In this document: in pieces, positions 15,536 through 27,643 of the stretch | Layout of the letters: each line of letters starts with the position of its first letter | How positions within the stretch are numbered: the stretch's first letter is position 1 | From: a phage | DNA length: 64,000 nucleotides | Sequence record: PV467749.1 | Reading direction: 5' to 3' (one strand) | Translations under genes and position numbers: made by a program | Notes under the pieces: generated by a model | Databases searched by the model: none | The model's input: only the letters and a program-made list of their open reading frames with translations | What the model was told of the DNA's origin: nothing

Positions 15536-15586
15536 GATTTGTTTCCTTATTACCAGGGGAAACCGTTTCCCCTTTCGATGTAAAAC

Positions 15587-15614
15587 ATTATACGCTTATC
15601 AGGAAGTAATGCAA
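15587..15614 (-). promoter_or_regulatory. promoter + 5' stem-loop cassette (PeSL-like)
   Basis: TTGCAT-N16-TATAAT + GGGGAAACGGTTTCCCC hairpin. Confidence 0.7.
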
Positions 15615-15617
15615 GTA

Positions 15618-16085
15618 CTATTTCACGTTAATTTCAAAGTACTGCTCTTTGATGTTTTCCTGTTGGTAAATCTCGTTTAATGCTTTAAGATCTAAAACCT
15701 GTTTACCTGCTGCCTGAATATACTTTTTAAGAGTCGCTAACAGCTTCTCAGGCGTGTTTGTAGTCTTACGTGTTGGGATCTTATCGTGCCCCATAGCGTA
15801 ATACTGCTTACGTGCTATAGTACTGATAACACTGCGGTACGGTTCCATGATCAGCTTGTCTGTGTATTCGTCGCTATCCCCAAACTTCATACCGTGGATC
15901 GCAAAGGTCATCATCATGCGGTCGTTATCGCGGATATTGTGGGGGCAGTCGGCAAGCTCGCGAGTCAGTGACATAGTGATCCCCACGTCGCCACCCAGCG
16001 GTAAAGGTCGGGCGATAAAGAAACCGTTAGGGAATACTTTCAGGAAGTTTTCTTGAACTGCTGCGACGAATTCGATGCTATTCAT
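15618..16085 (-). CDS. hypothetical protein
   Basis: 155-aa ORF, SD AAGGAA. Confidence 0.8.
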   Translation of the reverse strand: MNSIEFVAAVQENFLKVFPNGFFIARPLPLGGDVGITMSLTRELADCPHNIRDNDRMMMTFAIHGMKFGDSDEYTDKLIMEPYRSVISTIARKQYYAMGHDKIPTRKTTNTPEKLLATLKKYIQAAGKQVLDLKALNEIYQQENIKEQYFEINVK

Positions 16086-16137
16086 AATTCATTTCCTTAA
16101 TTAGTGGGGGAAACCGTTTCCCCTTTCGATGTAAAAC

Positions 16138-16165
16138 ATTATACGCCTATTGAGATAGTTTGCAA
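16138..16165 (-). promoter_or_regulatory. promoter + 5' stem-loop cassette (PeSL-like)
   Basis: TTGCAA-N16-TATAAT + GGGGAAACGGTTTCCCC hairpin (same stem as the cassette at 15587). Confidence 0.7.
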
Positions 16166-16259
16166 GTACTTTTTAAAAATAGTTTTCAGTACTCAATACT
16201 TATATAATAGATACACTTCCGCACCCTGTGGGCTAGTGAGCTATCTCTCAATGAATATA

Positions 16260-16298
16260 TAATAGCAAAATGGCTGACCGAAGTCAACCACTTTTTTC
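16260..16298 (-). promoter_or_regulatory. terminator-promoter fusion cassette
   Basis: Hairpin TGGTTGAC-TTCG-GTCAGCCA (16272-16291) carries TTGACT; N17; TATTAT. Confidence 0.6.
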
Positions 16299-16300
16299 AT

Positions 16301-16435
16301 TTATTTTTTAGCTTTAAGTACTGCGGCCTTTCGCGTCATGCCTTGCTTGATGTACTCCTTTACTTTCGCTTTTTTAGCGTTTACCTTGTCTGCTTTCGTT
16401 TTAGGAGTACTGTAAATTATACCGTTAGGATTCAT
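16301..16435 (-). CDS. hypothetical small basic protein (44 aa, below cutoff)
   Basis: My translation: MNPNGIIYSTPKTKADKVNAKKAKVKEYIKQGMTRKAAVLKAKK; its start abuts the stop of the 29-aa ORF. Confidence 0.45.
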   Translation of the reverse strand: MNPNGIIYSTPKTKADKVNAKKAKVKEYIKQGMTRKAAVLKAKK

Positions 16436-16525
16436 TTAAATCACCATAAAGAATAGATAGGTTACTAACAATGCCGCGATCAATGCACCGACCAGGGCCG
16501 AACTATAGTAAGCTAATGATTTCAT
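16436..16525 (-). CDS. hypothetical 29-aa hydrophobic peptide
   Basis: My translation: MKSLAYYSSALVGALIAALLVTYLFFMVI (single TM-like helix); ATGA-coupled to 16522..16674. Confidence 0.4.
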   Translation of the reverse strand: MKSLAYYSSALVGALIAALLVTYLFFMVI

Positions 16526-16674
16526 TTTTTAGCCTGAAAATAATGTTTAATTTGAGCGGCGGTCAGTGCACAATTACGCAGGAAGTTTTCTGTATAACTT
16601 TTGCGAGTACTGAAAGAGAATTGACCTTTGCCGTTACCGATAGTAACATCAAACCGAGCGTTGTATTGTTTCAT
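16522..16674 (-). CDS. hypothetical small protein
   Basis: Start moved to MKQYNARFDV (50 aa); upstream track residues are cassette read-through. Confidence 0.55.
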   Translation of the reverse strand: MKQYNARFDVTIGNGKGQFSFSTRKSYTENFLRNCALTAAQIKHYFQAKK

Positions 16675-16724
16675 TTTGATTCTCCTGTTATTGGGGAGAA
16701 TCATTTCTCCCCTCTATGTAAAAC

Positions 16725-16752
16725 ATTATACGCGTTTAAAAACTAATTACAA
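16725..16752 (-). promoter_or_regulatory. promoter + 5' stem-loop cassette (PeSL-like)
   Basis: TTGTAA-N16-TATAAT + GGGGAGAAATGATTCTCCCC hairpin. Confidence 0.65.
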
Positions 16753-16755
16753 GTA

Positions 16756-16902
16756 CTATTTTTTAGATTTACGCAAACTTTCTACCATCTCAGGAGTAAG
16801 GCCCGGCGGGTAGGAAACTACTTCATCAACGAAACGTAATGGGAATACCCCATCTAAGGTTGAACGTGCTTTCTTGTTAGTACTCTTTTTTGATGCTTTC
16901 AT
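16756..16902 (-). CDS. hypothetical small basic protein (48 aa, below cutoff)
   Basis: My translation: MKASKKSTNKKARSTLDGVFPLRFVDEVVSYPPGLTPEMVESLRKSKK; SD AAGGAA 7 nt upstream. Confidence 0.5.
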   Translation of the reverse strand: MKASKKSTNKKARSTLDGVFPLRFVDEVVSYPPGLTPEMVESLRKSKK

Positions 16903-16953
16903 TTCATATTCCTTAATTAGTGGGGAGAATCATTTCTCCCCTTCATGTAAAAC

Positions 16954-16981
16954 ATTATACGCGTTTAAAAACTAATTACAA
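16954..16981 (-). promoter_or_regulatory. promoter + 5' stem-loop cassette (PeSL-like)
   Basis: TTGTAA-N16-TATAAT + GGGGAGAAATGATTCTCCCC; duplicate of the cassette at 16725. Confidence 0.65.
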
Positions 16982-17181
16982 GTACTATTTGAAAGTAAAT
17001 GCTCATACGCTGCATTAACTACGTTTTCAATAACCGACTGTACAGAAAGATCCCCCACGTCCTGGCTATAGTAGAAATTGCTTACAGTGGTGTCATCGTA
17101 TGCAAATACTTTACCAGGTACGGCATCAATCACATACATATTAACCTTTAAGATGTCGATCTTATCCTGTACAGTAAGCAT
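16972..17181 (-). CDS. hypothetical protein
   Basis: 69-aa ORF following 17187..17459. Confidence 0.65.
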   Translation of the reverse strand: MLTVQDKIDILKVNMYVIDAVPGKVFAYDDTTVSNFYYSQDVGDLSVQSVIENVVNAAYEHLLSNSTCN

Positions 17182-17186
17182 ATTAA

Positions 17187-17459
17187 TTACCCTTTTAAGT
17201 ACTGGATTAAGTAGTCTTGTTGATCTTCGGTGATTGCCGCCATCTTCCCTAGTACTGGATTAATGATATAATCCCCGGTAACGTCCTGTAACGCATTCTC
17301 AGGCGGTGAAACGGCTGGGGTAGCCATAGCCATCGCCTGGACTTGTTCGACGCTGTATCGCTCATATAGGCGGCATTCTTCCGGTGTTAACATAGCATCA
17401 GTACGCTTCATCGGTTTAATGATGCTTTCGATCTCATTCAGTACTTGATTAACGTTCAT
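17187..17459 (-). CDS. hypothetical protein
   Basis: 90-aa ORF. Confidence 0.7.
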   Translation of the reverse strand: MNVNQVLNEIESIIKPMKRTDAMLTPEECRLYERYSVEQVQAMAMATPAVSPPENALQDVTGDYIINPVLGKMAAITEDQQDYLIQYLKG

Positions 17460-17510
17460 GGTATAATCCCCAATATAAGCGGCCTGAATCGACCGCTAAC
17501 GATGTTTTGA

Positions 17511-17780
17511 TTAATAGGTGTATGGTTGACGCTCAAACAATGATTGCACGTTGTACGCCCCGCTTATGGGCTTCGCTGGTAAATCAATTTTATATTGTTC
17601 ACGCTTAAAGATAATAAAACGGCAATTGTTTTTAACATCAAAATTGATTGAACGTTCCAGGAGTTTTCCATCGTGCACAAATACAAGATAACCGCTTGCT
17701 ACTTGTTTTGTAGTACTGGTTGCAACCATAGACCGCCGAACATGTGTACCTGCGTCGATTAAAGTACTGATATTTTTCAT
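17511..17780 (-). CDS. hypothetical protein
   Basis: 89-aa ORF, SD AAGAGGA. Confidence 0.7.
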   Translation of the reverse strand: MKNISTLIDAGTHVRRSMVATSTTKQVASGYLVFVHDGKLLERSINFDVKNNCRFIIFKREQYKIDLPAKPISGAYNVQSLFERQPYTY

Positions 17781-17860
17781 TATACGATCCTCTTAAGTTA
17801 ATTTAATTTCTTTCCCCTATGCAGACACTATATCAAAGTATCTGCATAAAGTAAAGCTAA

Positions 17861-18184
17861 TTAAAGATCTTTTTTGCGTTTAACATTCTGTACAGTACAA
17901 TGCAACGGGATATTAAGATCATTGCACAAACGAGTAAGGGAGGTTTCATCAGTATTAAGCCCGTCTACTGATTCCTTTAAGAGAGATAACGCCGTTTGTT
18001 GATATGCATCTTCATAGCCATAAGTAAATGATTCAACCGCCAGATCATTCAAACCGTTATCCAGTTCAACGCTTACATGACAAGAATGATAAGTATTGCC
18101 ATATGAATCAGTCCAACGTTTACCGTCAACATTGATTGCACGGATTGCAGCCAGGGAAACGGTGTTAATGATAGTTTTAGCCAT
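17861..18184 (-). CDS. hypothetical protein, paralog of 11350..11673
   Basis: Shared RWTDSYGNTYHSCHVS..FTYGY..VKRKKDL. Confidence 0.8.
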   Translation of the reverse strand: MAKTIINTVSLAAIRAINVDGKRWTDSYGNTYHSCHVSVELDNGLNDLAVESFTYGYEDAYQQTALSLLKESVDGLNTDETSLTRLCNDLNIPLHCTVQNVKRKKDL

Positions 18185-18225
18185 TTTTGTATTCCTTAAA
18201 TTAATATGTTGTCTTGATAAAATCT

Positions 18226-18254
18226 ATTATGCCAGTACTATCAAACTATGTCAA
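18226..18254 (-). promoter_or_regulatory. sigma70-type promoter
   Basis: TTGACA-N17-CATAAT. Confidence 0.65.
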
Positions 18255-18273
18255 TAGTACTGTGATAATATTT

Positions 18274-18417
18274 TTACTTACTTTTTGCTTTCTTTGCTGC
18301 TTCCACCTGGTCGGCCCATTCTTTACCCCATACTTGTAAATTATAATGGTACTGGCAAAGAGCAACGCCCCGCTTTAAACCAGTAATAGATTTCTGACCA
18401 CATTGACAAGTTTTCAT
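18274..18417 (-). CDS. hypothetical small Cys-containing protein (47 aa, below cutoff)
   Basis: My translation: MKTCQCGQKSITGLKRGVALCQYHYNLQVWGKEWADQVEAAKKAKSK; own cassette. Confidence 0.5.
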   Translation of the reverse strand: MKTCQCGQKSITGLKRGVALCQYHYNLQVWGKEWADQVEAAKKAKSK

Positions 18418-18466
18418 TTTAGTTTCCTTGTAGTGGGGAGAACCATTTCTCCCCTTGATGTAATGT

Positions 18467-18494
18467 ATTATACTTTATTCGATTTACTTTGCAA
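18467..18494 (-). promoter_or_regulatory. promoter + 5' stem-loop cassette (PeSL-like)
   Basis: TTGCAA-N16-TATAAT + GGGGAGAAATGGTTCTCCCC hairpin. Confidence 0.7.
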
Positions 18495-18502
18495 GTACTT
18501 TT

Positions 18503-18730
18503 TTAATTTAATTCATCAAGGCAAAGGATACGCTCAACGCCCAAATCAGTTAAACTAATCGACGGCACTTGATAGGTTTCAATGTATGCTACACTTGCCC
18601 ACTGACCGAACTCATTAACGGCCCAGGTATTCATTGCATTTTGCAATTCCGCACCTTCCTTGTTGGTAATGACTGCAACTACTTGTTCGTTGCCAGTAGT
18701 ACCAGATACGCGAGTAATGATAATAGCCAT
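18503..18730 (-). CDS. hypothetical protein
   Basis: Start moved to MAIIITRV (75 aa); upstream track residues are cassette read-through. Confidence 0.65.
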   Translation of the reverse strand: MAIIITRVSGTTGNEQVVAVITNKEGAELQNAMNTWAVNEFGQWASVAYIETYQVPSISLTDLGVERILCLDELN

Positions 18731-18785
18731 TGTTTTGATTCCTTTGATTTTGAAGGAGAACCGTTTCCCCCTCTCGATGTAAAAC

Positions 18786-18813
18786 ATTATACGCTAATCT
18801 CTTAATCGTGCAA
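18786..18813 (-). promoter_or_regulatory. promoter + 5' stem-loop cassette (PeSL-like)
   Basis: TTGCAC-N16-TATAAT + GGGGGAAACGGTTCTCC hairpin. Confidence 0.65.
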
Positions 18814-18965
18814 GTACTTTTTATTACTTTTTGCAAAATACTTTAAACGCTCTCAATCGCGTTCTTACAGCCTTAACGCCACCAGCTAGGGCAATGCATC
18901 AGATAATCAGTTTAATGCGTTAGAATCGTTTCTAGGCGGTGCTGGTGGCCTGGTAAACGATAAAC

Positions 18966-18994
18966 ACAAAAAAGCCCACCGTTTAAGGTGGGCT
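18966..18994 (-). terminator. rho-independent terminator
   Basis: GCCCACCttaaacGGTGGGC + TTTTTT on the minus strand, after 19016..19498. Confidence 0.75.
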
Positions 18995-19015
18995 AGTGAT
19001 TCAGTACTTTAATTG

Positions 19016-19498
19016 TTATGCTTCAACTTTGCGATGAGCTTCGATCCATTCCTCGCGAGTCATACCACTGGAGTTAATCGCGTCCAGTACTACCGCAATA
19101 CAGTTACCACGCACCGGAATCAGATATTCTTCCCCGTTGTCCAGTACTACCGCTACGCGTTCCTGAATCCATTTTTTGGCTTTTACTTCTGGCTTGTCTT
19201 CCCCATACTTAACCGCCAGGGCTTTTTGTGCCATCTCTGTAACTACTTCCAGATCCAATCCAACTACTGCCGCCTGAATACTTTCGATTGTTGCTTGTAG
19301 TTCTGCTTCACGGGCCGCCTTTGCCGCTTCAATTTCTGCCGCTTTATTTGCTTGTAGTTCTTTCGCAGTACTGTACGCGATGTTAAAATTATTGCGTACC
19401 GCTTTCATGGTATCGTTATCCAGTTCAGCCAGGATCTCAGCCGCTACGTTAGTTTCATTTGCTACCAGTGCTTTGATGAATGATTTTACATTAGCCAT
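19016..19498 (-). CDS. hypothetical protein (Ala/Glu-rich helical N-terminal half)
   Basis: Start set at MANVKSF (SD GAGGAT); 160 aa. Confidence 0.8.
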   Translation of the reverse strand: MANVKSFIKALVANETNVAAEILAELDNDTMKAVRNNFNIAYSTAKELQANKAAEIEAAKAAREAELQATIESIQAAVVGLDLEVVTEMAQKALAVKYGEDKPEVKAKKWIQERVAVVLDNGEEYLIPVRGNCIAVVLDAINSSGMTREEWIEAHRKVEA

Positions 19499-19621
19499 TT
19501 TATAAATCCTCAATTAAAGTTTAGTTTACGTTTATTAGTGTATCAAAGTTTTCTCGACGTGTCCAGTTTTTCGTTCGACTTACTGGCGGTCTACTTAGTG
19601 CTCCCCGTCTTGATGTAATAC

Positions 19622-19649
19622 ATTCTACGCTTTTCTGCGGTAATGTCAA
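19622..19649 (-). promoter_or_regulatory. sigma70-type promoter with diverged copy of the structured leader
   Basis: TTGACA-N16-TAGAAT. The leader at about 19540-19620 resembles the spacer of the 12321/22107 repeats. Confidence 0.55.
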
Positions 19650-19700
19650 CTACTTTCTTAAAACTATTTTCAAAGTATCTCAGTACTACGATACTACAAA

Positions 19701-19725
19701 AACAAAAAAGCCCACCAGGTGGGCT
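19701..19725 (-). terminator. rho-independent terminator
   Basis: GCCCACctgGTGGGC + TTTTTTGTTTTT on the minus strand, after 19732..19962. Confidence 0.65.
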
Positions 19726-19731
19726 ATGTAC

Positions 19732-19962
19732 TTAATCAGTGAGTAAAATATTAAACACTTTACCATTTAACGTTATTGGTGCACTGCTACCAGGCTCAAG
19801 ATCCGTTAATATACCTGCAATCGCTTTATCATTGGCGACCTTTCCAGTGTCCAACAGTACTACAGTACTGATAAGATTAACGCTCGTTTCAATATCATAA
19901 TGCACGGCGTTAAGTAGTTGTGTAGTACTGCTTTCGTTAAGTAAAACAATTCGCTTAGTCAT
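19732..19962 (-). CDS. hypothetical protein
   Basis: 76-aa ORF. Confidence 0.7.
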   Translation of the reverse strand: MTKRIVLLNESSTTQLLNAVHYDIETSVNLISTVVLLDTGKVANDKAIAGILTDLEPGSSAPITLNGKVFNILLTD

Positions 19963-19983
19963 GATGTTACCCCGTAGTATCTA

Positions 19984-20283
19984 TCAACGGCAATTAATAA
20001 CGCCGGTATGCGTTACTTTCTCAGTATCCATTACAGTGACCGAACCGCGTTTAGTACTGGCATCATAATAAATTGTTGTGCTACCGTTTTCGTCTTCTTC
20101 ATGGAACGGGCCGTTTTTAAATGCTTCCGGCTGGATCTCTAAATCCTTTAATACAATCTCGCCAGTACTTTCATCGGTCATTGCAACAGTGCACTGAATG
20201 AATTTTTCACTACTTACATCTAATGACGCATTAACAGCGAAAGAGGAAACAGATAAAGCCAGGGCGATGATTGTAATTTTCAT
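19984..20283 (-). CDS. small secreted protein (signal peptide, two-Cys family)
   Basis: Start moved to MKITIIALALSVSSFAVNA|S; Cys near the mature N-terminus (FIQC) and 1 residue from the C-terminus (VINCR). Confidence 0.75.
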   Translation of the reverse strand: MKITIIALALSVSSFAVNASLDVSSEKFIQCTVAMTDESTGEIVLKDLEIQPEAFKNGPFHEEDENGSTTIYYDASTKRGSVTVMDTEKVTHTGVINCR

Positions 20284-20328
20284 TTGATTATCCTTAGTTA
20301 CCAGGGGAACCGCTCCCCTATGCAAAAC

Positions 20329-20356
20329 ATTATACGCGTTTAAAAACTAATTGCAA
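20329..20356 (-). promoter_or_regulatory. promoter + 5' stem-loop cassette (PeSL-like)
   Basis: TTGCAA-N16-TATAAT + GGGGAGCGGTTCCCC hairpin. Confidence 0.7.
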
Positions 20357-20389
20357 GTATTTTAATAAAAAGTATTTGAAAAATAATTG

Positions 20390-20418
20390 TTGACAACTGC
20401 ATCCAGTACTGGCATAAT
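20390..20418 (+). promoter_or_regulatory. plus-strand sigma70-type promoter with no ORF downstream
   Basis: TTGACA-N17-CATAAT; CCCACCGGGTGC box at 20447-20458. Confidence 0.6.
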
Positions 20419-20424
20419 TACTAC

Positions 20425-20519
20425 ATCAAGACGAAACAGTCACTAACCCACCGGGTGCCGAGATCCGTCTATTAAATGATTCAGTACTGAAAAAGTAACG
20501 GGGAGTTATTATCTCCCCG
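20425..20519 (+). ncRNA. candidate ~95-nt small RNA
   Basis: Runs from the promoter at 20390-20418 to the GGGGAGttattatCTCCCC hairpin (20500-20518). No ORF or SD; contains the conserved box. Confidence 0.3.
20488..20519 (-). terminator. terminator hairpin (possibly bidirectional)
   Basis: GGGGAGataataaCTCCCC, followed on the minus strand by gttaCTTTTT; lies after the stop of 20525..20746. Confidence 0.6.
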
Positions 20520-20524
20520 CGTTG

Positions 20525-20746
20525 TTATTTTGTAAGGTATAAACAGAAGTCGCCTTTATTTGCTACGCCGCCAGTGTAACGCGATGAATAGTTAGAAACG
20601 TCCTGGACTTCTGCTATTACCAGGGTATCATCATTCAATTCGTCGCAGAAGCAAACGGCTGGATCTTGTACGCCGATTTTGTCGGCATGTTCCCGCATAG
20701 ATTTAACCAGTGCTTCCAGTTGGGAAAGAGTAGTGATATTAGCCAT
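20525..20746 (-). CDS. hypothetical protein
   Basis: Start moved to MANITTLSQ (73 aa). Confidence 0.7.
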   Translation of the reverse strand: MANITTLSQLEALVKSMREHADKIGVQDPAVCFCDELNDDTLVIAEVQDVSNYSSRYTGGVANKGDFCLYLTK

Positions 20747-20796
20747 TTTATTTTCCTCATTACCAGGGAGAACCATTTCTCCCTTTGATGTAAACC

Positions 20797-20824
20797 ATTA
20801 TACAGTACTGAAAACTAATTGCAA
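20797..20824 (-). promoter_or_regulatory. promoter + 5' stem-loop cassette (PeSL-like)
   Basis: TTGCAA-N16-TATAAT + GGGAGAAATGGTTCTCCC hairpin. Confidence 0.7.
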
Positions 20825-20832
20825 GTACTTTT

Positions 20833-21093
20833 TCAATATTGTTTGTCGTCGTCTTCCTCGATGAATTGACCGACGAAATGATCTACTTTCGCTTTGAGGC
20901 TTTTATAATCTTCTTCTACTTCCTTTAAACGTTCCTGGTAGTATTCCAATGCTTCAAGATACGCCGCCTCAGCAGTTTTTGCACGCATGGCTAAATTCAT
21001 GCCACGCGTTTCATCAAATAGCCAATAACCATCGGTGCACTGGCTAATAGATAATGTCTTGCTTAGTGCTGTATAGCTAATTACTTTACTCAT
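20833..21093 (-). CDS. hypothetical protein (coiled-coil C-terminus)
   Basis: 86-aa ORF. Confidence 0.7.
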   Translation of the reverse strand: MSKVISYTALSKTLSISQCTDGYWLFDETRGMNLAMRAKTAEAAYLEALEYYQERLKEVEEDYKSLKAKVDHFVGQFIEEDDDKQY

Positions 21094-21131
21094 TAGATAA
21101 CCCTCAGTAAAGGCGGGAACTATTACCCGCC

Positions 21132-21161
21132 ATTATCTCAGTACTGAATATTACATTCCAA
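21132..21161 (-). promoter_or_regulatory. probable promoter + stem-loop
   Basis: TTGGAA-N18-GATAAT + GGCGGGtaatagttCCCGCC; overlaps the 3' end of 21151..21390. Confidence 0.45.
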
Positions 21162-21390
21162 CCATTGCAGCACGGATCGCAGTAGTGCTATATTTGAATC
21201 CGTCCGGCGTTGTAGTAGTACCGTTGGCTTTTAATCTGCGGTACATACATTCCGCAGCAATATCTTTAGTTCTACTTTGTGCGATGCAACTTTGTGCAAG
21301 CCGATACAATGACTCACCGTTATTAATCCAAAGGCTTACATTCCAATGAGTTTTGTTTTTGTGTCCGTTGTAAGTTTTAGTACTAGCCAT
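21151..21390 (-). CDS. hypothetical protein, paralog of 23196..23435
   Basis: Start moved to MASTKTYNGHK. Shared GHKNKTHWNVSLWINN.ESLYRLAQ and TPDGFKYSTTAIRAAMVGM. Confidence 0.8.
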   Translation of the reverse strand: MASTKTYNGHKNKTHWNVSLWINNGESLYRLAQSCIAQSRTKDIAAECMYRRLKANGTTTTPDGFKYSTTAIRAAMVGM

Positions 21391-21440
21391 TTTTAAATCC
21401 TCGTTTGAGCGGGGAACCACTCCCCGCCTTGATGTAAAGT

Positions 21441-21468
21441 ATTATACGCTTTTAAACTTAGTTTACAA
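21441..21468 (-). promoter_or_regulatory. promoter + 5' stem-loop cassette (PeSL-like)
   Basis: TTGTAA-N16-TATAAT + GGCGGGGAGTGGTTCCCCGC hairpin. Confidence 0.65.
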
Positions 21469-21480
21469 GTACTTTTTAAA

Positions 21481-22092
21481 TTAATATTCGATTGATTCCA
21501 CTACGCCATCAATAACATTGAATTGATATTCGTTACCCTCAATCAGTGCAGTAATGTTTTCAGTAGTGAATTGATCCTCATATGCATTCTCTAAATCACG
21601 GTACAACTTACGAGATAATTCACGGATCGCATCAGTCAGTAAGTTTTCCAGGTCATCAGCAAGTGCCGCTTGTTTTACAGTTAAATCAGTGTAGCGAGTA
21701 TCAACGCAACCGCTTACCGTGTTTTCGTGTGCGTAGCGAGAGTGTGAACGTTCTACACTCATTGCCAAATCATCTTCATTCAACAAGTGACGGATTGAAC
21801 GATATTTCGTTAACGCCTTAACCTTGCGTAAAAACTTCTCAGCGTCAACGTGGTTAGTACTGATTGATGCACCGTCACCTTGCGACCAAAAACCACTGTA
21901 TTGCAATTCAGCTTCATCTATGCCGTATTCTGGTAGTACTGTTTCTTTATAGTACTCGATAACGCCCTCAGCAAAGAAATTATCCTCACATGAACGCTCA
22001 CGATCCCGAACCAGTTCGATAGCCGCCGTTTTTTGTTCTGCGTTCAGTTCAGAAAAAGCCATAACAAAAGTAGTAGTAGTGATAGTTTTCAT
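21481..22092 (-). CDS. conserved hypothetical protein (YSGFWSQGDGAS motif)
   Basis: 203-aa acidic ORF. The motif is reminiscent of plasmid/phage-borne families, but I cannot assign one. Confidence 0.8.
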   Translation of the reverse strand: MKTITTTTFVMAFSELNAEQKTAAIELVRDRERSCEDNFFAEGVIEYYKETVLPEYGIDEAELQYSGFWSQGDGASISTNHVDAEKFLRKVKALTKYRSIRHLLNEDDLAMSVERSHSRYAHENTVSGCVDTRYTDLTVKQAALADDLENLLTDAIRELSRKLYRDLENAYEDQFTTENITALIEGNEYQFNVIDGVVESIEY

Positions 22093-22106
22093 TTTGTAAC
22101 CCTCAT

Positions 22107-22298
22107 TCAGTAGTTGATGTAAGTATTATACGCTTTTAAAAACATTTGTCAAACTATTTTATCAGGGGAGTTTTTCGTGTGCCTTACTCCTGGGCTACTT
22201 AACGGGAAGTTACTTATTTCGTTCCCCGTCCTGATGTAAAACATTATACGCTTATTGAGATAGTTTGCAAGTACTTTTTAAAAATAGTTTTCAGTACT
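22107..22298 (-). repeat. ~190-bp dual-promoter unit with structured ~75-nt spacer (copy B)
   Basis: Near-identical to 12321..12510. P1 22243-22270 (TTGCAA-N16-TATAAT), P2 22125-22152 (TTGACA-N16-TATAAT). Confidence 0.75.
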
Positions 22299-22316
22299 GA
22301 ATAGTAAAAAAAAGTA

Positions 22317-22345
22317 TTGACAGCATTATCAAGTACTGGCATAAT
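22317..22345 (+). promoter_or_regulatory. plus-strand promoter, convergent with 22461..22489
   Basis: TTGACA-N17-CATAAT; box CCCACCGGGTGC at 22367-22378; no ORF. Confidence 0.6.
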
Positions 22346-22460
22346 ATACCCCATGACAACAGCTAACCCACCGGGTGCACAATTGTAACTATACTAAACT
22401 AATTTTTCTATAGATACACTCCCGCACCCTATGGGCTACGGCTTATCTGCCAATGAATAC

Positions 22461-22489
22461 ATTATGCCAGTACTGACAAAATAAGTCAA
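22461..22489 (-). promoter_or_regulatory. minus-strand promoter, convergent with 22317..22345
   Basis: TTGACT-N17-CATAAT; box (minus sense CCCATAGGGTGC) at 22424-22435. Confidence 0.6.
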
Positions 22490-22522
22490 TACCGGCAATT
22501 GTAAATTTTTCAAAAAATATGA

Positions 22523-22753
22523 TTATACTGCAATCGCGTCCAGGCTGTAATAATAATAAGTGCCGTATTGGTGTACTTTATTACCTTTTATTTCAGTACT
22601 GAATGAATCCGAACGATTTGCATATGATGTTAATTTAAAGTACTTTGATTTGCTGATACGTTGCCATACACCACAGATCCGCTGTAAGTAAGTAGTTTTA
22701 TTCGTGGTCGTATCTTTTACGGTTTTAACTTCAGTCATATACATATTAGTCAT
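22523..22753 (-). CDS. hypothetical protein
   Basis: 76-aa ORF, SD GGAG. Confidence 0.7.
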   Translation of the reverse strand: MTNMYMTEVKTVKDTTTNKTTYLQRICGVWQRISKSKYFKLTSYANRSDSFSTEIKGNKVHQYGTYYYYSLDAIAV

Positions 22754-22805
22754 TTTTATTACTCCAGGTTATAGGCGGGAAGAGTTCCCGCTCTCGATGT
22801 AAAAC

Positions 22806-22833
22806 ATTATACGCCTTTAAACATAGTTTGCAA
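22806..22833 (-). promoter_or_regulatory. promoter + 5' stem-loop cassette (PeSL-like)
   Basis: TTGCAA-N16-TATAAT + GAGCGGGAACTCTTCCCGCC hairpin. Confidence 0.7.
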
Positions 22834-22840
22834 GTACTTT

Positions 22841-23107
22841 TTATTCAAGTACTGCAATCTTTTTAGTACGGTACACGGTCACGCGGTTGCCCTTTCGGTC
22901 GAGCTTTATTTCTACCACTCGACGCGATACACTATCGGGACTTTTTAAGGCCGCTAACCAGTACTGTAATGATCTGGCGGTACTACGCTTTACAATGGCC
23001 CAACGTTTACCACGTTCCGATTGTACGCCCATATCTTTAAACGTTGCCCCGTCCTGGCGTGCGGCGATCCGAGCTTGTTCACGCGTCGCAAAATACTTAA
23101 TATTCAT
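22841..23107 (-). CDS. hypothetical protein, paralog of 10859..11254
   Basis: Start moved to MNIKYFATREQAR; shared FKDMG, KRWA, DRKGNRVTVY. Confidence 0.75.
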   Translation of the reverse strand: MNIKYFATREQARIAARQDGATFKDMGVQSERGKRWAIVKRSTARSLQYWLAALKSPDSVSRRVVEIKLDRKGNRVTVYRTKKIAVLE

Positions 23108-23195
23108 GCTGTTGCCCTTATCGTTGGTGTATGAATAAAACACTATTATAAAGTACTATCCCCGTGCAATAGTACTTTAAATAAATTCTATTCTA

Positions 23196-23435
23196 TTACA
23201 TTCCAACCATTGCCGCACGGATCGCAGTAGTGCTATATTTGAATCCGTCCGGTGTTTTATCTTGTCCAGTCTGTTCTAAAAATAACATCATATGACGGGC
23301 CGCATCATTGCGATTAGTGCTATCGTTAATAAAGTCCTGGGCCAACCGGTATAATGATTCATCGTTATTAATCCAAAGGCTTACATTCCAATGAGTTTTG
23401 TTTTTGTGACCTAAGAACATTTTTGATTTAGCCAT
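23196..23435 (-). CDS. hypothetical protein, paralog of 21151..21390
   Basis: Start moved to MAKSKMFLGHK (SD AGAGGA). Confidence 0.8.
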   Translation of the reverse strand: MAKSKMFLGHKNKTHWNVSLWINNDESLYRLAQDFINDSTNRNDAARHMMLFLEQTGQDKTPDGFKYSTTAIRAAMVGM

Positions 23436-23486
23436 TTTTTTAATCCTCTTATATAGTGGGGAACTATTCCCCACCTGATGTAAAAC

Positions 23487-23514
23487 ATTATACGCTTTTA
23501 AACTTAGTTTGCAA
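23487..23514 (-). promoter_or_regulatory. promoter + 5' stem-loop cassette (PeSL-like)
   Basis: TTGCAA-N16-TATAAT + GGTGGGGAATAGTTCCCCAC hairpin. Confidence 0.7.
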
Positions 23515-23528
23515 GTACTTTATTAAAC

Positions 23529-23891
23529 TTATTTGTAAATTTTGCCACTTTCTACCCATACCAGGAAACGAGGCATATTATCCCATGCATCTTGCTTTAA
23601 GTTTAAGCCGTGCAATTCCTCAGTTGTTGCCATGCCTGGGACTGGTTTACTATACACCGAGAATTTTTCGCCCATGTACTGATAAACCATCGTCAAATCA
23701 CTGGCGATCATCTTATGGATCATCGCATCAAGCATCACGGTCGCGGCGTATTGTTCACGCTTAAGCGGCAGCATTTTAATCAGTTCGCGGTATGCGTCAA
23801 TGTGAGTTTTAACCGTTGCCGCCGGAAGATCTTTCATCTCGTCGCGGAAGTTAACCAGGTTAGCAATAATTTTGGTGATTTGAGTCGCCAT
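23529..23891 (-). CDS. hypothetical protein
   Basis: Start moved to MATQITKII (120 aa); 47 upstream track residues are cassette read-through. Confidence 0.7.
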   Translation of the reverse strand: MATQITKIIANLVNFRDEMKDLPAATVKTHIDAYRELIKMLPLKREQYAATVMLDAMIHKMIASDLTMVYQYMGEKFSVYSKPVPGMATTEELHGLNLKQDAWDNMPRFLVWVESGKIYK

Positions 23892-23948
23892 CGTTTTAAT
23901 CTCTCTTAAAAGTGAGTTAGGAGCGTTTCCCCCGTCTCGATGTAAAAC

Positions 23949-23976
23949 ATTATACGCCTTTAAACATAGTTTACAA
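23949..23976 (-). promoter_or_regulatory. promoter + 5' stem-loop cassette (PeSL-like)
   Basis: TTGTAA-N16-TATAAT + GACGGGGGAAACGCTCC hairpin; leftmost-pointing promoter at the edge of the ORF-free region. Confidence 0.65.
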
Positions 23977-24199
23977 GTACTTTCTACAAATACTTTTAAA
24001 ATAGTTTTCTTTCTATATAGGGAAACTATCATTCAGTACTGAATCAACCAAATCACTACTACACCCCGTAAAACGGCCTCAATCGCATTCTAACGCATTA
24101 TTACACCTAAGCTATACATTTGCACCATTCTAATCATTCCAGTGCGTTACGGGCCGTTTAAACGCGTTAAATTATTTTCAATTATTTTGTTTTTAGGTA

Positions 24200-24227
24200 T
24201 TGACTCAGTACTAAAAAAGCGTATAAT
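24200..24227 (+). promoter_or_regulatory. plus-strand promoter, no ORF
   Basis: TTGACT-N16-TATAAT; box CCCCAGGGGGTGC at 24255-24267; an opposite-sense box at 24313-24325. Confidence 0.6.
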
Positions 24228-24415
24228 TACTACATAGACGCGAGAAAGCGGATACCCCAGGGGGTGCGGAATTGTGCCCAAAATTCAAGATATAAAAAAA
24301 GGATACACTCCCGCACCCTAGCAGGTAAACGCACTTTCTCAGTACTGAAATATAGTACCATAGTCCGGCCCAGGATAGCAAGCAAATTAATTAAAACTTT
24401 TTTGCTTCCAGGGTA

Positions 24416-24443
24416 TTGCTTTATTTTTTCAGTACTGTATAAT
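24416..24443 (+). promoter_or_regulatory. plus-strand promoter, no ORF
   Basis: TTGCTT-N16-TATAAT (TG-extended); box CCCACCGGGTGC at 24472-24483. Confidence 0.55.
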
Positions 24444-24540
24444 AGTTCCATCAAGTCGAGAAAGACTCAAGCCCACCGGGTGCATAGTTACGCCCAAAAT
24501 TCAGTACTGAAAAAATTTTTAAAAATATCCGTCCAGGTCG

Positions 24541-24569
24541 TTGACATTGCCCCCAGTTTATAAGATAAT
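24541..24569 (+). promoter_or_regulatory. plus-strand promoter reading into the TAGCCRTC iterons
   Basis: TTGACA-N17-GATAAT; GCGGGGAaactaTCCCCaCGC hairpin about 40 nt downstream. Confidence 0.6.
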
Positions 24570-24666
24570 GATTCCAGATTCAGAAAAATCTAACACCAGA
24601 TACTGCGGGGAAACTATCCCCACGCGGTAGGGGAACTATTGGAAAAAACAAAATAAAATTTTGATT

Positions 24667-24778
24667 TAGCCGTCTATACTTCCAGACGTGTAACCATCTA
24701 GCCGTTTAGCCGTCCAAACGTCTAGCCATCCAGCCATCCAGAAATCTAGCCGTTTAGCCGTCTAGATGGATAGCCATC
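24667..24778 (+). repeat. iteron cluster, 8 copies of TAGCCGTY / YAGCCATC
   Basis: Copies at 24667, 24699, 24707, 24723, 24731, 24747, 24755, 24771. Flanked by a CTTCCAGAC pair and RCCCAAAATYC repeats. Confidence 0.8.
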
Positions 24779-25180
24779 TTTACTTCCAGACTTCTGGAGG
24801 GCTAGACATATCTACGCCCAAAATCCATCCAGGGTAACTACACCCAAAATCCGTCAGTACTATACCATAGATCTATCTTTTGAAAGGGAGTATTCAGTAC
24901 TGCCATCATAGCCCTCACTATGTTACCCTAGGAGGATGAAGACTATCATGTAGTACTGAATACTGTTAGAGGGAATCCACCAGCTTGTGCTGGTGGCATA
25001 ATGCTTTAGATTAAAATCAGTACTGACACCATTCTGTTAATATCAGTACTGTTATTACGATTTTCATATGAGGTTCAAAAAGATGTACCACCACAGGAGG
25101 AACTATCTTTTCTGTACTGTCTCACGACAGGAGGTAGAGTAAATGAATTGTTCGCAGCAACTCATCTCTCTATGTAGAAC

Positions 25181-25208
25181 ATTATACAGTACTGAATCAT
25201 AATGTCAA
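25181..25208 (-). promoter_or_regulatory. orphan PeSL-type promoter (no gene downstream)
   Basis: TTGACA-N16-TATAAT with a GTTCTACATAGAGAG leader like the early-gene cassettes, but followed only by ORF-free DNA. Confidence 0.55.
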
Positions 25209-25486
25209 TAGCTTTCTTTCATTATTCAGTACTGATATTCTTGAGAACTACCCGACTACAAACATCATTATATCCCACAAATCATAAACGTCCCAACGTA
25301 AATTTCAACTTTCGAAGAACCAACTTTTATTTCATAGGTACTCCAAAATTTTTAGGATCGAGATTTAGGATGGAGTACTAACCAACTTTTTGCTGGAGCC
25401 TCAAGGGGTAATTGAATTTTACCCCGAAGGGTAAAAGGGTAATTGAAATTAAGGTGAAAGTAATAATTCAGTACTAATCATTGCGT

Positions 25487-25514
25487 GATTACTTTTGATT
25501 ACATTTGATGTAAT
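25487..25514 (+). repeat. three GATTAC-type hexamers phased at 10 bp
   Basis: GATTACttttGATTACatttGATGTAAT. Confidence 0.7.
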
Positions 25515-25726
25515 TTGCAAAATGGAAAAGGAGCTTGGAAACTACAAAGTACGGCAGACTTCCTCTGCCTACTTAGTGACATATCGACACCTTCAGTACT
25601 GAATACTTTTAGGGCAGTACTGAATCCTTCCCTAGCATTCTTGAGTAATCTTGTCTATAATAATCAGTACTGAATCATATATAATCATTCTGTGATTCTA
25701 CGGTGCTCATATAAATGTTTATATAT

Positions 25727-25752
25727 GATTACTTATGACTACATATGATTAC
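25727..25752 (+). repeat. three GATTAC-type hexamers phased at 10 bp (second cluster)
   Basis: GATTACttatGACTACatatGATTAC. Confidence 0.7.
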
Positions 25753-25875
25753 GGGGTTTAGCCTGGGGAGAATCCTAGTGATCGCATTTGTCCAGGCTGA
25801 ATTTTAACAATTCTTCTAATTGTTAAAGCCTGTCCAATGCTTTCCCTGCGGAGCTTCCCCTGTCTATATGTTGAA

Positions 25876-26082
25876 TTACTTCCTATATATAAGCATTAAC
25901 ATATAGTAGTACTGATTATGCTGTACATTCTCTTTAATATTATAAGGGTCTATAGCAATCTCGGTACATCTGTTAAATGCATATCTATTAAATGCCAGTA
26001 CTATTATAGATCTAATCCATGCTTGGTCAGTCGGTGGTAGTTTACTTATATAGTACTCTTTATAGTTTTTTATGTTCTGCAT
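25876..26082 (-). CDS. family-2 small protein
   Basis: MQNIKNYKEYYISKL..YYYMLMLIYRK; last gene of the array. Confidence 0.7.
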   Translation of the reverse strand: MQNIKNYKEYYISKLPPTDQAWIRSIIVLAFNRYAFNRCTEIAIDPYNIKENVQHNQYYYMLMLIYRK

Positions 26083-26093
26083 AGTATACCTTA

Positions 26094-26285
26094 TTATTTC
26101 AAAGTACCATATAGTACTCTTAATAGGAAGTAGTACGTATTAGAGATATCATTAGTAGTTAAAACAATCTTAGTACACATATTAAATTCGTATTGAGTCA
26201 TTGCCAGGGGGATTAAATTGTTAACCCATGCTTGTTCGTTTTCTTTGAGTTTACTTATATAGAAATCTTTATGTTCTTTATTCAT
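26094..26285 (-). CDS. family-2 small protein
   Basis: MNKEHKDFYISKL..YYFLLRVLYGTLK. Confidence 0.7.
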   Translation of the reverse strand: MNKEHKDFYISKLKENEQAWVNNLIPLAMTQYEFNMCTKIVLTTNDISNTYYFLLRVLYGTLK

Positions 26286-26487
26286 ATAGGAATAGTATAC
26301 CTATGATGCCGGAGTACATATTAGTACTGTTATTATTGTCGTTTGCGTTTAAGGTCATTTGAATACAATTATTGTAGCATAATCTGCCGAAATATGTATC
26401 AGTACTTAAAGGTGCTGTAGTCCTTAGAAACATTTGTTCTGTGGGGCTGAGGTGTTTGGAGTAGAATTCTTTATGTTCTTTATTCAT
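26278..26487 (-). CDS. family-2 small protein
   Basis: MNKEHKEFYSKHLSPTEQMFLR..; close to 26861..27067. Confidence 0.7.
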   Translation of the reverse strand: MNKEHKEFYSKHLSPTEQMFLRTTAPLSTDTYFGRLCYNNCIQMTLNANDNNNSTNMYSGIIGILFLYE

Positions 26488-26492
26488 ATTAG

Positions 26493-26678
26493 TTAGTGTC
26501 TGTATATAAGTAATAGTAAGAATACGTACTGCACCTGTTCATCTTTAGTATTGAGTACTGTACGTATTGCGTCATGGAACAAGAATATAGTACTTGGGTC
26601 ATTAGAATTTAAGGGGTTTACGGGGACGGCGTGTTTGTAGTTCCCTTTAACAAATTGTATATAGTATTCTCTATGCAT
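26493..26678 (-). CDS. family-2 small protein
   Basis: MHREYYIQFV..YVFLLLLIYRH. Confidence 0.7.
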   Translation of the reverse strand: MHREYYIQFVKGNYKHAVPVNPLNSNDPSTIFLFHDAIRTVLNTKDEQVQYVFLLLLIYRH

Positions 26679-26679
26679 A

Positions 26680-26868
26680 TCAGTACCTATATATTAGGGC
26701 GAGAATGTAGTACAGTTTATATGTATTATAATCTGGGTTGATAGCACATAGTGTGTGGTAGTGGAATTGTTTGGTATTTTTCTTATCCTTGATATCTATT
26801 GGGATTTGTGGTATAAGCATTTGGGAGTTTAGATCGAGATGGCTTAAGTAGAATTCTTTGTTATTCAT
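26680..26868 (-). CDS. family-2 small protein
   Basis: MNNKEFYLSHL..LYYILALIYRY. Confidence 0.7.
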   Translation of the reverse strand: MNNKEFYLSHLDLNSQMLIPQIPIDIKDKKNTKQFHYHTLCAINPDYNTYKLYYILALIYRY

Positions 26869-27067
26869 AGAAGAATATTAGTCCCATTACGCCTGAGTAT
26901 TGAATATTTTTGTTATTGTTTTCTAAAGCTTCTAGAGTAATACGTATACAATTATTAAAGCAATCTCTGGCGTGTGGTGTATCTAAACGTAAAGGTGATA
27001 CACTCCTTAGAAACATTTGTTCTGATGCACTGAGGTGTTTGGTGTAAAATTCTTTCTGTTCGTTCAT
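26861..27067 (-). CDS. family-2 small protein
   Basis: MNEQKEFYTKHLSASEQMFLR.. Confidence 0.7.
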   Translation of the reverse strand: MNEQKEFYTKHLSASEQMFLRSVSPLRLDTPHARDCFNNCIRITLEALENNNKNIQYSGVMGLIFFYE

Positions 27068-27077
27068 ATTGGCCTCT

Positions 27078-27266
27078 TTAGTACACGAAAGCTAGGTACA
27101 GTACATGATACAGTACTCGATGATAGCTATCAAAATCTAGTATACATGCTTTAGTGCACATAGTAAAGTACACTTTATCGTTTTGAGCATTGATACCGCG
27201 AGGTTTATCTAATAGATTAGTACTGAGGTACATTGGGAAATATTTTGTGTAGTATTCTTTATGCAT
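27078..27266 (-). CDS. family-2 small protein
   Basis: Start set at MHKEYYTKYF (the track adds 15 residues that overlap the upstream gene). Confidence 0.7.
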   Translation of the reverse strand: MHKEYYTKYFPMYLSTNLLDKPRGINAQNDKVYFTMCTKACILDFDSYHRVLYHVLYLAFVY

Positions 27267-27267
27267 A

Positions 27268-27450
27268 TTAGTACCTGAATATAAGTAGGATAGTGTTATA
27301 TAATTGGTCATAGCTACTACTATTTTCTATACTGCGTTCTATGCAATTATTGAATCCCAGTACTGCCAAATCGTTATCCAGGGGGACTTTATATCTGGCG
27401 TAGTGTTCAAATATACTGGGGAGAAATTGTGTGTAGTATTCTTTGTGCAT
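27268..27450 (-). CDS. family-2 small protein
   Basis: MHKEYYTQFL..LYNTILLIFRY. Confidence 0.7.
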   Translation of the reverse strand: MHKEYYTQFLPSIFEHYARYKVPLDNDLAVLGFNNCIERSIENSSSYDQLYNTILLIFRY

Positions 27451-27451
27451 A

Positions 27452-27643
27452 TTAGTACTTATATATTAGTAAAAGGATGTGATACAGTACTCTATTATAG
27501 TCCTCAATATATATCGAGGATTTAGTGCACTGAATGAAGTAGTCTTTTTCGTAGTCTTTTTCTATACTCAATTGTTTTGTTGGTACAAGGTGTTGGAGAT
27601 ACATTGGGAGTTTCTCTATGTAGTATTCTTTGTGGTTATTCAT
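27452..27643 (-). CDS. family-2 small protein
   Basis: MNNHKEYYIEKL..LYHILLLIYKY. Confidence 0.7.
   Translation of the reverse strand: MNNHKEYYIEKLPMYLQHLVPTKQLSIEKDYEKDYFIQCTKSSIYIEDYNRVLYHILLLIYKY

Follow-up and report, generated by a model that had tools for sequence, protein, structure and literature searches.

A conserved, promoter-linked structured element repeated in the early region of Rak2-like jumbo phages

The 64,000-nt stretch of phage DNA analysed here (sequence record PV467749.1; hereafter the window) carries copies of a short box, CCC-N3-4-GGGTGC, each just downstream of a promoter, and we found this box to be the core of a conserved, multi-copy, promoter-linked structured element that is specific to Rak2-like jumbo phages, occurs in at least five genera and matches no Rfam family; tentatively, we read it as a protein-binding RNA module. 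By megablast the window matches Asteriusvirus jumbo coliphages of about 350 kb (WPEC5, UE-S1, G17, 121Q, PBECO4, and fEgEco12) at 90-98% identity. The direct terminal repeat of fEgEco12 measures 20,993 bp, as checked by restriction mapping (PMC13070987), and aligning window positions 24000-27500 to this phage placed the left genome end at about 25,570 and the repeat at about 4,580-25,570. All box copies are located within this direct terminal repeat of about 21 kb, which is the early region.

The original prediction listed eleven copies of the box and named enrichment over shuffled controls among its tests. Both held: the 12-base box CCCAYNGGGTGC with at most one mismatch was matched ten times in the window (6518, 9270, 12540, 14526, 16221, and 22424 on the minus strand; 20447, 22367, 24256, and 24472 on the plus strand), against a mean of 0.58 and a maximum of 3 in shuffled sequence, and the eleventh copy, on the minus strand at 24313 (CTGCTAGGGTGC), is degenerate in its CCC half and fails the covariance-model threshold of E 0.01. 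The longer consensus of about 25 nt ending in R-N4-TGTAWC is kept in eight of the eleven copies. All eleven lie downstream of a -35/-10 pair and in its orientation, as had been proposed for all but one, although the gap that separates the last base of the -10 from the box measures 21-28 nt and not 22-30 nt. The copy at 24313 had been described as lacking a convincing -35; we found there a weak promoter, TTGCTA-18-TACTAT with a TG extension, and the same TACTAT -10 is used by the copies CBB 1008+ and BF 996+ of two related phages. In eight of the eleven cases the promoter combines a 17-nt spacer with a TG-extended -10, either CATAAT or TATTAT. The box is absent from all 12 perfect TTGACA-16-TATAAT promoters of the same 20 kb and from every TTGCAA-16-TATAAT promoter there.

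With a 91-nt query the unit was recovered from jumbo phages of Escherichia, Salmonella, Klebsiella, Cronobacter, Pectobacterium, Erwinia, Serratia, and Yersinia, and the matches in CBB, vB_Ec-M-J, fENko-Kae01, and Muenster fall under the annotated terminal repeat. The unit was found in Asteriusvirus, Mimasvirus (CBB), Eneladusvirus (BF), and Alcyoneusvirus (K64-1, RaK2), in the unclassified phage Munch, in GAP32, and in further uncultivated jumbo-phage contigs, with about 8-12 units per phage in CBB, BF, K64-1/RaK2, Munch, and GAP32. CBB has 11 exact copies, from 1,008 to 20,897 of its 22,456-bp repeat, and in BF, K64-1, and Munch exact copies number 8-10 per phage, with variants in addition. 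The covariance model retrieved 103 copies (98 distinct) over the window and 15 related loci, and within the window none outside 6.5-24.5 kb. In the fetched loci and in a whole-contig scan of IMG/VR alike, the copies are concentrated in the terminal repeat or in the early region that corresponds to it; in IMG/VR, promoter-linked copies came only from contigs of this phage group, each genome having them clustered in one or two short stretches, and the few other matches were promoter-less. The same sub-types occupy syntenic positions across genera, and the copy at 9270 is 99-100% identical in more than 25 Asteriusvirus genomes. According to the CBB genome paper these phages have only about one third of their proteins in common; the paper lists promoters and, in the sections searched, describes no such box (PMC5259590). 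Rfam release 15 gave no match at gathering score over the whole window and, at E of 10 or below, eight weak matches in 5.5-25.5 kb, none of which overlaps a box unit; ARAGORN found no tRNA or tmRNA gene in the window. No homologue was found by blastn in 5,426 E. coli genomes, and a 23-nt pattern searched in 596 Gb of bacterial genomes gave 99 scattered single matches, about chance level by a rough estimate and none of them enterobacterial. A host-derived element or host mimicry was rejected, since nothing was found in E. coli or other enterobacteria.

The eleven units of the window are listed below, each named after its box position and strand, with P2 and P4 denoting a hairpin and a pairing of the transcript that are described thereafter.

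22317-22392, plus strand: unit 22367+, plus member of the focal pair; promoter TTGACA-17-(TG)CATAAT at 22317-22345, predicted start at about 22352, A-rich leader without P2, box at 22367-22378, P4 3' arm ending at 22390; ORF-less (ORF, open reading frame) and antisense to minus-strand genes.
22410-22489, minus strand: unit 22424-, minus member of the focal pair; promoter TTGACT-17-(TG)CATAAT at 22489-22461, predicted start at about 22454, P2 GGC-AGAUAA-GCC, box at 22435-22424, P4 3' arm ending at 22412.
24200-24281, plus strand: unit 24256+, facing 24313-; promoter TTGACT-16-TATAAT at 24200-24227, P2 CGC-GAGAAA-GCG, 4-nt-loop box CCC(C)AGGGGGTGC at 24255/6-24267, followed by GGAAUUGUGCCCAAAAUUCA.
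24299-24381, minus strand: unit 24313-, degenerate; promoter TTGCTA-18-(TG)TACTAT, box CTGCTAGGGTGC at 24324-24313, P4 hairpin GGGUGCGGGAGUGUAUCC followed by U7 and terminator-like (24319-24300 in the terminator list).
24416-24497, plus strand: unit 24472+, heading toward the predicted genome end; promoter TTGCTT-16-TATAAT, P2 AGUC-GAGAAA-GACU, box at 24472-24483.
20390-20520, plus strand: unit 20447+, solitary and antisense; promoter TTGACA-17-(TG)CATAAT at 20390-20418, P2 GAC-GAAACA-GUC, box at 20447-20458.
16207-16287, minus strand: unit 16221-, gene sense; terminator hairpin with the -35 in its loop, promoter TTGACT-17-(TG)TATTAT, P2 UGAG-AGAUAG-CUCA, box at 16232-16221, second promoter TTGCAA-16-TATAAT at 16165-16138.
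14512-14594, minus strand: unit 14526-, gene sense; promoter TTGACA-17-(TG)CATAAT, P2 GACG-AGAA-CGUC, box at 14537-14526.
12526-12601, minus strand: unit 12540-, gene sense; hairpin-with-promoter cassette, no P2 in the A-rich leader AUAGAAACAAAUCAG, box at 12551-12540.
9256-9336, minus strand: unit 9270-, gene sense; hairpin-with-promoter cassette, P2 UGAG-AGAUAA-CUCA, box at 9281-9270, second promoter at 9213-9186.
6504-6579, minus strand: unit 6518-, gene sense; hairpin-with-promoter cassette, A-rich leader without P2, box at 6529-6518, second promoter at 6438-6410.

Two alignments, one of 52 copies and one made with the covariance model from the 98 distinct copies, gave the anatomy of the module. 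From a predicted start site, probably the A of CAU 7 nt past the -10, it runs through a hairpin (P2), a linker Y-U-A-R, CCC, 3-4 variable nt, GGGUGC, a loosely conserved R-G-A-R-N, U-G, Y-R-Y-C-Y, and A-U into an A/U-rich tail. P2 formed in a fixed register in 43 of the 52 copies, while 500 shuffles gave 8.6 on average and never more than 17; it is absent from about one fifth of the copies, which have an A-rich stretch such as GAAAACA instead. Its stem of 3-5 bp occurs in 31 different versions, and its loops are purine-rich (GCGAAA 19, AGAUAA 15, AGAACAA 10, and GAGAAA 9 times). Double changes were present at all four pairs, in 31-46 sequences, and the covariation score was 0.433 against 0.143 ± 0.009 after shuffling, with none of 500 shuffles scoring as high, in an alignment that was fitted to the model. 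An independent check on this covariation is provided by 121Q, which at the locus of unit 22424- is about 98% identical to the window but has GGC-AGAUAA-GCC swapped for AUUG-AAACGAA-CAAU. At the level of sequence, P2 is thus proven by covariation to be a true co-varying helix, and since its stem co-varies, the unit is very probably read as RNA. A closing helix P1 between the 5' end and CUAU and a pseudoknot of the P2 loop (AGAUA-UAUCU) were both rejected, as they occur in some sub-types only and in no consistent register.

The box core can form two further pairings, P3 (CCC with GGG) and P4 (GGGUG with YRYCY), which share the GGG strand and are mutually exclusive. The CCC-N3-GGG mini-hairpin of the original prediction is compatible with our data, but competes with P4, which had not been noticed. 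The CCC-GGG spacers include ACA, AUA, ACC, UAUA, UAGA, CAGA, UCAA, GCUA, and AAAA, with 3-nt and 4-nt versions occurring together in BF, and one compensatory CCU/AGG change was seen in P3. Pairs 1-5 of P4 (GGGUG with positions 14-18) were formed in 92-98 of the 98 copies. By our own tally, minority letters in the 3' tract of P4 are transitions in 99 of 110 cases, which keeps G-U or G-C pairing, while the proportion in neighbouring variable columns is about 41-48%; the rare changes on the 5' side are matched as well (GGGCGG with G at position 15, GGGUAC with U at position 14), and as DNA the two arms of P4 are not complementary. Paired cells amounted to 94% for P3 and 89-90% for P4, compared to 14-61% in slid registers, and constrained folding gave means of -9.9 kcal/mol for the P3 state and -7.4 kcal/mol for the P4 state, with P4 being the better of the two in 19 of 51 copies. 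The RNA may hence adopt two putative alternative folds; since CCC and GGG are invariant, ordinary covariation tests are uninformative at this point. Three other accounts of the conserved letters were tried. A CCC.GGG.YCY triple helix was rejected because the third strand is mostly U. A mini-ORF with GGGUG as Shine-Dalgarno sequence and NUG 5 nt on (e.g., GUG UAU CUA UAG) was rejected because of AUC, UUA, and AUA variants and shifting stops; by our own reading NUG stands at that position in about three quarters of the distinct copies, and P4 pairs 6-13 and 7-12 account for U12 and G13 just as well. A sigma-dependent or consensus pause (G-10, Y-1, G+1 on G3, U12, G13) was set aside, as only 56 of 98 copies have G13 and the hairpin lies at an unsuitable spacing.

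Because the invariant letters resemble a protein site, the strongest rival to an RNA reading is a DNA operator, in which a phage or host protein would recognise CCC-N3-GGGTGC-N5-TGTATCTAT at about +20 to +50 and, by blocking or activating transcription, turn the whole class of promoters off or on as one regulon, with P2 being an unrelated 5' RNA-stabilising hairpin. The letters are indeed invariant and without covariation, the box is strictly tied to one promoter class in either gene direction, and the same promoter class has a second candidate site, CAGTACTG, in its spacer. Nevertheless, we consider an operator unlikely. The spacing of the box is fixed relative to P2 (4-5 nt) and not to the promoter (21-28 nt), CCC-GGG spacers of 3 and 4 nt are found in one genome, the downstream tract is limited to transitions that preserve G-U pairing, which would be meaningless in duplex DNA, and dyad symmetry is missing from the DNA of most copies. 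About one third of the units, moreover, are antisense to genes, at operon 3' ends, or face each other without an ORF. For these reasons, among the three functions originally suggested for the box, the sequence evidence favours the two RNA options (a signal in the nascent RNA, or small sense/antisense RNA genes) over the operator.

The palindrome CAGTACTG is itself abundant, with 61 occurrences in the window against 1.04 expected (e.g., 6417, 14573, 20404, 20482, 22292, 22468, 24340-25672, and up to 62372). It is found in promoter spacers (GCCAGTACTGGCATAAT), 15-30 nt past many boxes (TTCAGTACTGAA), densely near the predicted genome end and within coding regions, and the regulatory regions of CBB, BF, Munch, and K64-1 are equally pervaded by GTAC-containing palindromes. 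Possible roles of CAGTACTG are to bind a phage protein or to act as a signal for modification or packaging.

Two exclusive pairings that share a strand close to a promoter are also what is seen in the BglG/SacY-RAT, TRAP, and PyrR leaders, and the box module could be a cis attenuator, with P3 as antiterminator, P4 and the A/U-rich tail as a weak terminator or pause, and a factor on the conserved 5' part deciding read-through, after which the polymerase would continue into the genes or, from antisense units, into the upstream operon. P3 and P4 are both kept and have close energies, U5-U7 follows P4 in a few copies (24313-, CBB 15231+, and GAP32 8972+), and the second promoter past the sense copies would keep the genes expressed. 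On the other hand, strand-sharing alternative hairpins can form, but a U-tract straight after the hairpin is generally missing: in most copies, position 19 is A, the tail has more A than U and no usable U-tract follows. The stems of P4 are weak and contain many G-U pairs, and an attenuator does not readily explain units that lack anything to regulate downstream. The leaders of the known systems also differ from the units described here, which mostly lack a U-tract, often have no gene to regulate and share no homology with them. An attenuator is in our view quite unlikely.

The composition of the tail bears on yet another alternative, in which the box would be a -35/-30 element, similar to a MotA box, of an embedded second promoter with a TATWNT -10 starting 18 nt past GGG. 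Of the 98 copies, 77 have A at position 19 and 75 have T at position 20, and several copies have TATTAT, TATAAT, TATAGT, or CAAAAT there; however, the key last T of such a -10 (position 23) is present in only 48 of 98, and the transition-only pattern and P2 would be left unexplained. For this phage group, the CBB genome paper reports another candidate middle-promoter motif, TGAAACG (PMC5259590). An embedded promoter is very unlikely, and the least probable of the explanations considered.

The units that face each other were examined at two places in the window. At 22317-22489, the focal pair, two convergent promoters had been predicted about 115 bp apart, and their -10s are indeed 115 bp apart, with the boxes offset by 57 bp. 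No credible ORF lies inside this pair, and its edges are touched only by TTG-start ORFs of at most 36 aa or a 36-aa ATG ORF. The pair at 24200-24381 likewise stands face-to-face with a box offset of 57 bp; here the earlier claim that no ORF lies between the promoters needs to be qualified, as mechanical TTG and GTG ORFs of 44-99 aa, none of them ATG-started, cross boxes and promoters. Pairs of this kind are found at matching places in related phages, at about 1 kb and 3-4 kb from the left end, with an offset of 57 bp in CBB (1008/1065, 3818/3875, and 20840/20897) and BF (3714/3771) and of 68-75 bp in BF (996/1071) and Munch (1003/1078 and 7403/7471). We infer from the sequence that the promoters fire and that the convergent transcripts overlap.

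Exactly between convergent boxes, several related genera carry Fur-box-like palindromes (GATAATGATAATCATTTAC, 17/19 to the Fur consensus), at Munch 7434-7452, K64-1 10467-10485 and 11328-11346, BF 1034-1052, and 6091-6109 of a further related locus (L026); in the window, no Fur box was found at up to three mismatches. Shared two-way terminators between the convergent boxes of BF and Munch were rejected, since the central palindromes fold weakly, have no U-tracts and are more Fur-box-like.

Four copies (6518, 9270, 12540, and 16221) follow a hairpin with the -35 in its loop and are followed by a second promoter, in agreement with the terminator-promoter cassettes originally described. These terminator-like hairpins (AAAGGGATTGACTCCGGTCAGTCCCTTT), three identical and one variant, lie on the minus strand at 6559-6586, 9316-9343, 12581-12608, and 16267-16294. 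Leaders of the second promoter class have G-run/C-run hairpins of their own between start site and ribosome-binding site (e.g., GAGAGGGGGAAAUGGUUCUCCCUAG; minus strand, 9140-9190, 16090-16135, 12380-12470, and 22150-22240) and represent a second conserved leader type. One promoter of the box class, at 18254-18226 on the minus strand (TTGACA-17-TG-CATAAT), has no box, and its leader, starting with AUCAAGAC, runs straight into a ribosome-binding site and ATG; it constitutes a natural control without the box.

The name PeSL, originally applied to this arrangement, fits the surrounding cassettes. The PeSL cassettes described from T4-like phages (Arbiol 2010; Comeau 2014) likewise combine A/T-rich sequence with a stem-loop and an early sigma-70 promoter close to consensus, repeated within a plastic early region. 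A stem-loop with promoter (hairpin AAAGGGATTGACTCCGGTCAGTCCCTTT) is present in the four units named above, after which second cassettes follow, and not in the other seven. The box, however, is not part of the published definition: PeSLs end in a Shine-Dalgarno sequence and a start codon, with no structured leader and no CCC/GGGUGC box (PMC4122927), whereas in our units the promoter is followed by the box module and then by a second promoter or nothing. The cassettes raise the question of whether the box is a functionless sequence that they share, its copies being homogenised by recombination or gene conversion of PeSL-like mobile cassettes. Four copies do sit in near-identical terminator-promoter cassettes, and PeSL cassettes recombine (PMC4122927), yet the box is invariant while P2 stems, loops and tails differ between copies and genera, the sub-types keep syntenic positions in otherwise very divergent genera, and P2 displays compensatory change and not homogenisation. 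We therefore regard this explanation as very unlikely.

A further possibility is processive antitermination of the nut/put type, in which the nascent module, with or without an N-like protein, would load on its own polymerase and carry it through the terminator cassettes that crowd the repeat. The N-dependent nut sites of lambdoid phages (lambda, P22, and phage 21) are, like P2, short purine-loop hairpins just past early sigma-70 promoters that are read as nascent RNA, with a stem that is free to vary and a conserved loop, and N peptides bind small hairpins with purine-rich penta- or hexaloops of this kind (PMC12550061). In phage 21 the hexaloop of boxB is CUAACC (PMC12550061). Many of the copies described here contain CUAACC...GGGUG, a sequence reminiscent of the loop and stem of that boxB. 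However, the CUAA linker is present in just 23 of 77 copies, and boxA (YGCUCUUWA) has only two matches in the window, at 57768 and 62006, which is chance level and near no box. The core CCC-N3-4-GGGUGC has no nut counterpart, P2 has hexa- and heptaloops of several classes and is missing from one in five copies, and there are about ten copies per repeat, compared to two nut sites per genome, with one third of them antisense or ORF-less. Read-through also appears unneeded, as nearly each gene or gene pair has its own strong promoter, and no N-like protein was identified, although no search aimed at arginine-rich-motif proteins was made. The put sites of HK022, two adjacent small stem-loops past early promoters that act as RNA on their own polymerase independently of other factors, share with the box module the promoter-proximal pair of small stem-loops. 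They measure about 65-70 nt, number two and are always upstream of operons, and we know of no resemblance in sequence or size between put and the box module. Antitermination is quite unlikely, slightly more so than attenuation. The element is most like a promoter-proximal nut/put RNA signal or a protein-controlled leader switch and is a member of neither, since it has no boxA, no usable U-tract, no Rfam match, and another copy number and other orientations.

The reading that we tentatively prefer, on the basis of sequence comparison, is that of a structured protein-binding 5' RNA module which may itself be the product. A module of about 45-50 nt would form the extreme 5' end of transcripts from one dedicated class of early promoters used by the host sigma-70 polymerase, its invariant UAR-CCC-A...A-GGGUGC would be the binding site for a host or phage protein, and the ORF-less, antisense and face-to-face units would be small non-coding RNA genes. 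With ten strong promoters per repeat, and thus twenty per packaged genome, the cell would be flooded with module RNA in the first minutes of infection, and copy number and promoter strength together point to a very high early dose. The module would either tag its own transcripts or soak up a factor. That a further strong promoter follows the sense copies indicates that the genes do not depend on the box units, and unit 20447+, whose predicted ORF-less RNA of about 95 nt reaches a two-way terminator hairpin at 20498-20520, favours an RNA product over a gene leader.

A more specific version, which we hold to be possible and rather unlikely, is that the units are multi-copy, very early small RNAs, a new class of phage RNA, forming a two-state aptamer for a host factor such as RNA polymerase, an RNA chaperone, a ribonuclease or an immunity sensor. 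About 20 promoters of consensus strength on the first-entering DNA would then disarm or redirect this factor, and the pairs that face each other close to the genome end would serve as dedicated RNA factories and not as gene promoters. For such a decoy, CsrB/CsrC and CrcZ offer a parallel in that many copies of a short protein-binding motif titrate a factor, and about half the copies have GGA in the loop of P4, while A-rich stretches resembling ARN are seen in P2 or in the leader. In the box units, however, the motif copies belong to separate genes instead of being repeated in one RNA, GGA and ARN are not universal, and the invariant CCC/GGGUGC does not correspond to any CsrA or Hfq site that is known. 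The terminal repeat of PA5oct, a distant relative, gives rise to two non-coding RNAs of very high abundance, with ORF-less loci accounting for 2-5% of phage reads in RNA-seq (PMC7318152). PA5oct is likewise a host-polymerase-dependent jumbo phage with a long direct terminal repeat, and we take it as an analogy only. Its RNAs, of 236-451 nt and with no promoter defined (PMC7318152), have no box and no sequence similarity. A similarity to PA5oct ncRNA001 was rejected, as none was seen by eye in the stretch inspected.

Several results weigh against a protein-binding RNA module. Invariant letters without covariation are also typical of a DNA-binding site. Single-sequence folding energies were ordinary (z -1.5 to +1.1), for which reason thermodynamic stability was dropped as evidence. 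By column shuffles P3 and P4 were indistinguishable from chance, as the CCC and GGGUG arms do not vary and are only compatible with pairing, and RNAalifold on an unfitted alignment returned P3 only. The tail after P4 (positions 19-26) is 47% A and 39% U by our own tally, with no U-tract, and a terminator-like hairpin lies within 150 nt downstream in 33 of 88 copies, 24 of these being P4 itself by a loose rule; as most units have no clear 3' end, a short species would need processing or weak termination. No base-pairing target of the box was found in the window beyond the boxes themselves. The early ORFs checked near the units were without known function or DUF7249, and no partner protein was identified among them.

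The surrounding early region has further features of its own. The genes of the repeat stretch are small, on the minus strand and annotated without function, and the promoter and terminator scan found about 40 strong sigma-70-type promoters and many terminator hairpins in the repeat region. Two paralogous small early genes (DUF7249/phrog_871) are located on the minus strand at 23196-23474 and 21151-21420. Between 6858 and 25208 the minus strand has 12 perfect TTGACA-16-TATAAT and about 9 TTGCAA-16-TATAAT promoters in 20 kb, and the early genes are served by at least three distinct promoter classes in these 20 kb of the window. A noncoding stretch at about 24,650-25,700 adjoins the predicted terminus (about 25,570) and contains short direct repeats (tagccgt and ccagccatccag), a 34-nt inverted repeat capped by CAGTACTG at 25018-25051, two opposed Chi sites 5 bp apart at 24977-24996, and a switch in the sign of the GC skew. 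The E. coli Chi sequence GCTGGTGG occurs 14 times in the window against 0.71 expected, 11 of them within the terminal repeat (6464-24996), and 9 of these 11 are on the minus strand (6464, 6687, 8266, 10168, 13413, 14363, 14621, 18879, and 24977), an orientation that we reason would block RecBCD entry from the right-hand genome end.

Rak2-like jumbo phages have a place in phage therapy, both in use and in research, while their early programme is almost entirely annotated as hypothetical protein. The analysis provides for them a conserved and testable RNA element that marks one early promoter class in at least five genera and accounts for the puzzling ORF-less, face-to-face promoters by the genome end. 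The covariance model can be used to annotate these genomes, in which the units are at present unannotated or hidden under spurious small ORFs. Should the module bind a host factor, it would join the few known RNA-based devices for take-over or counter-defence, and if it is a cis switch, it would represent a new way of timing early transcription in phages that depend on the host polymerase.

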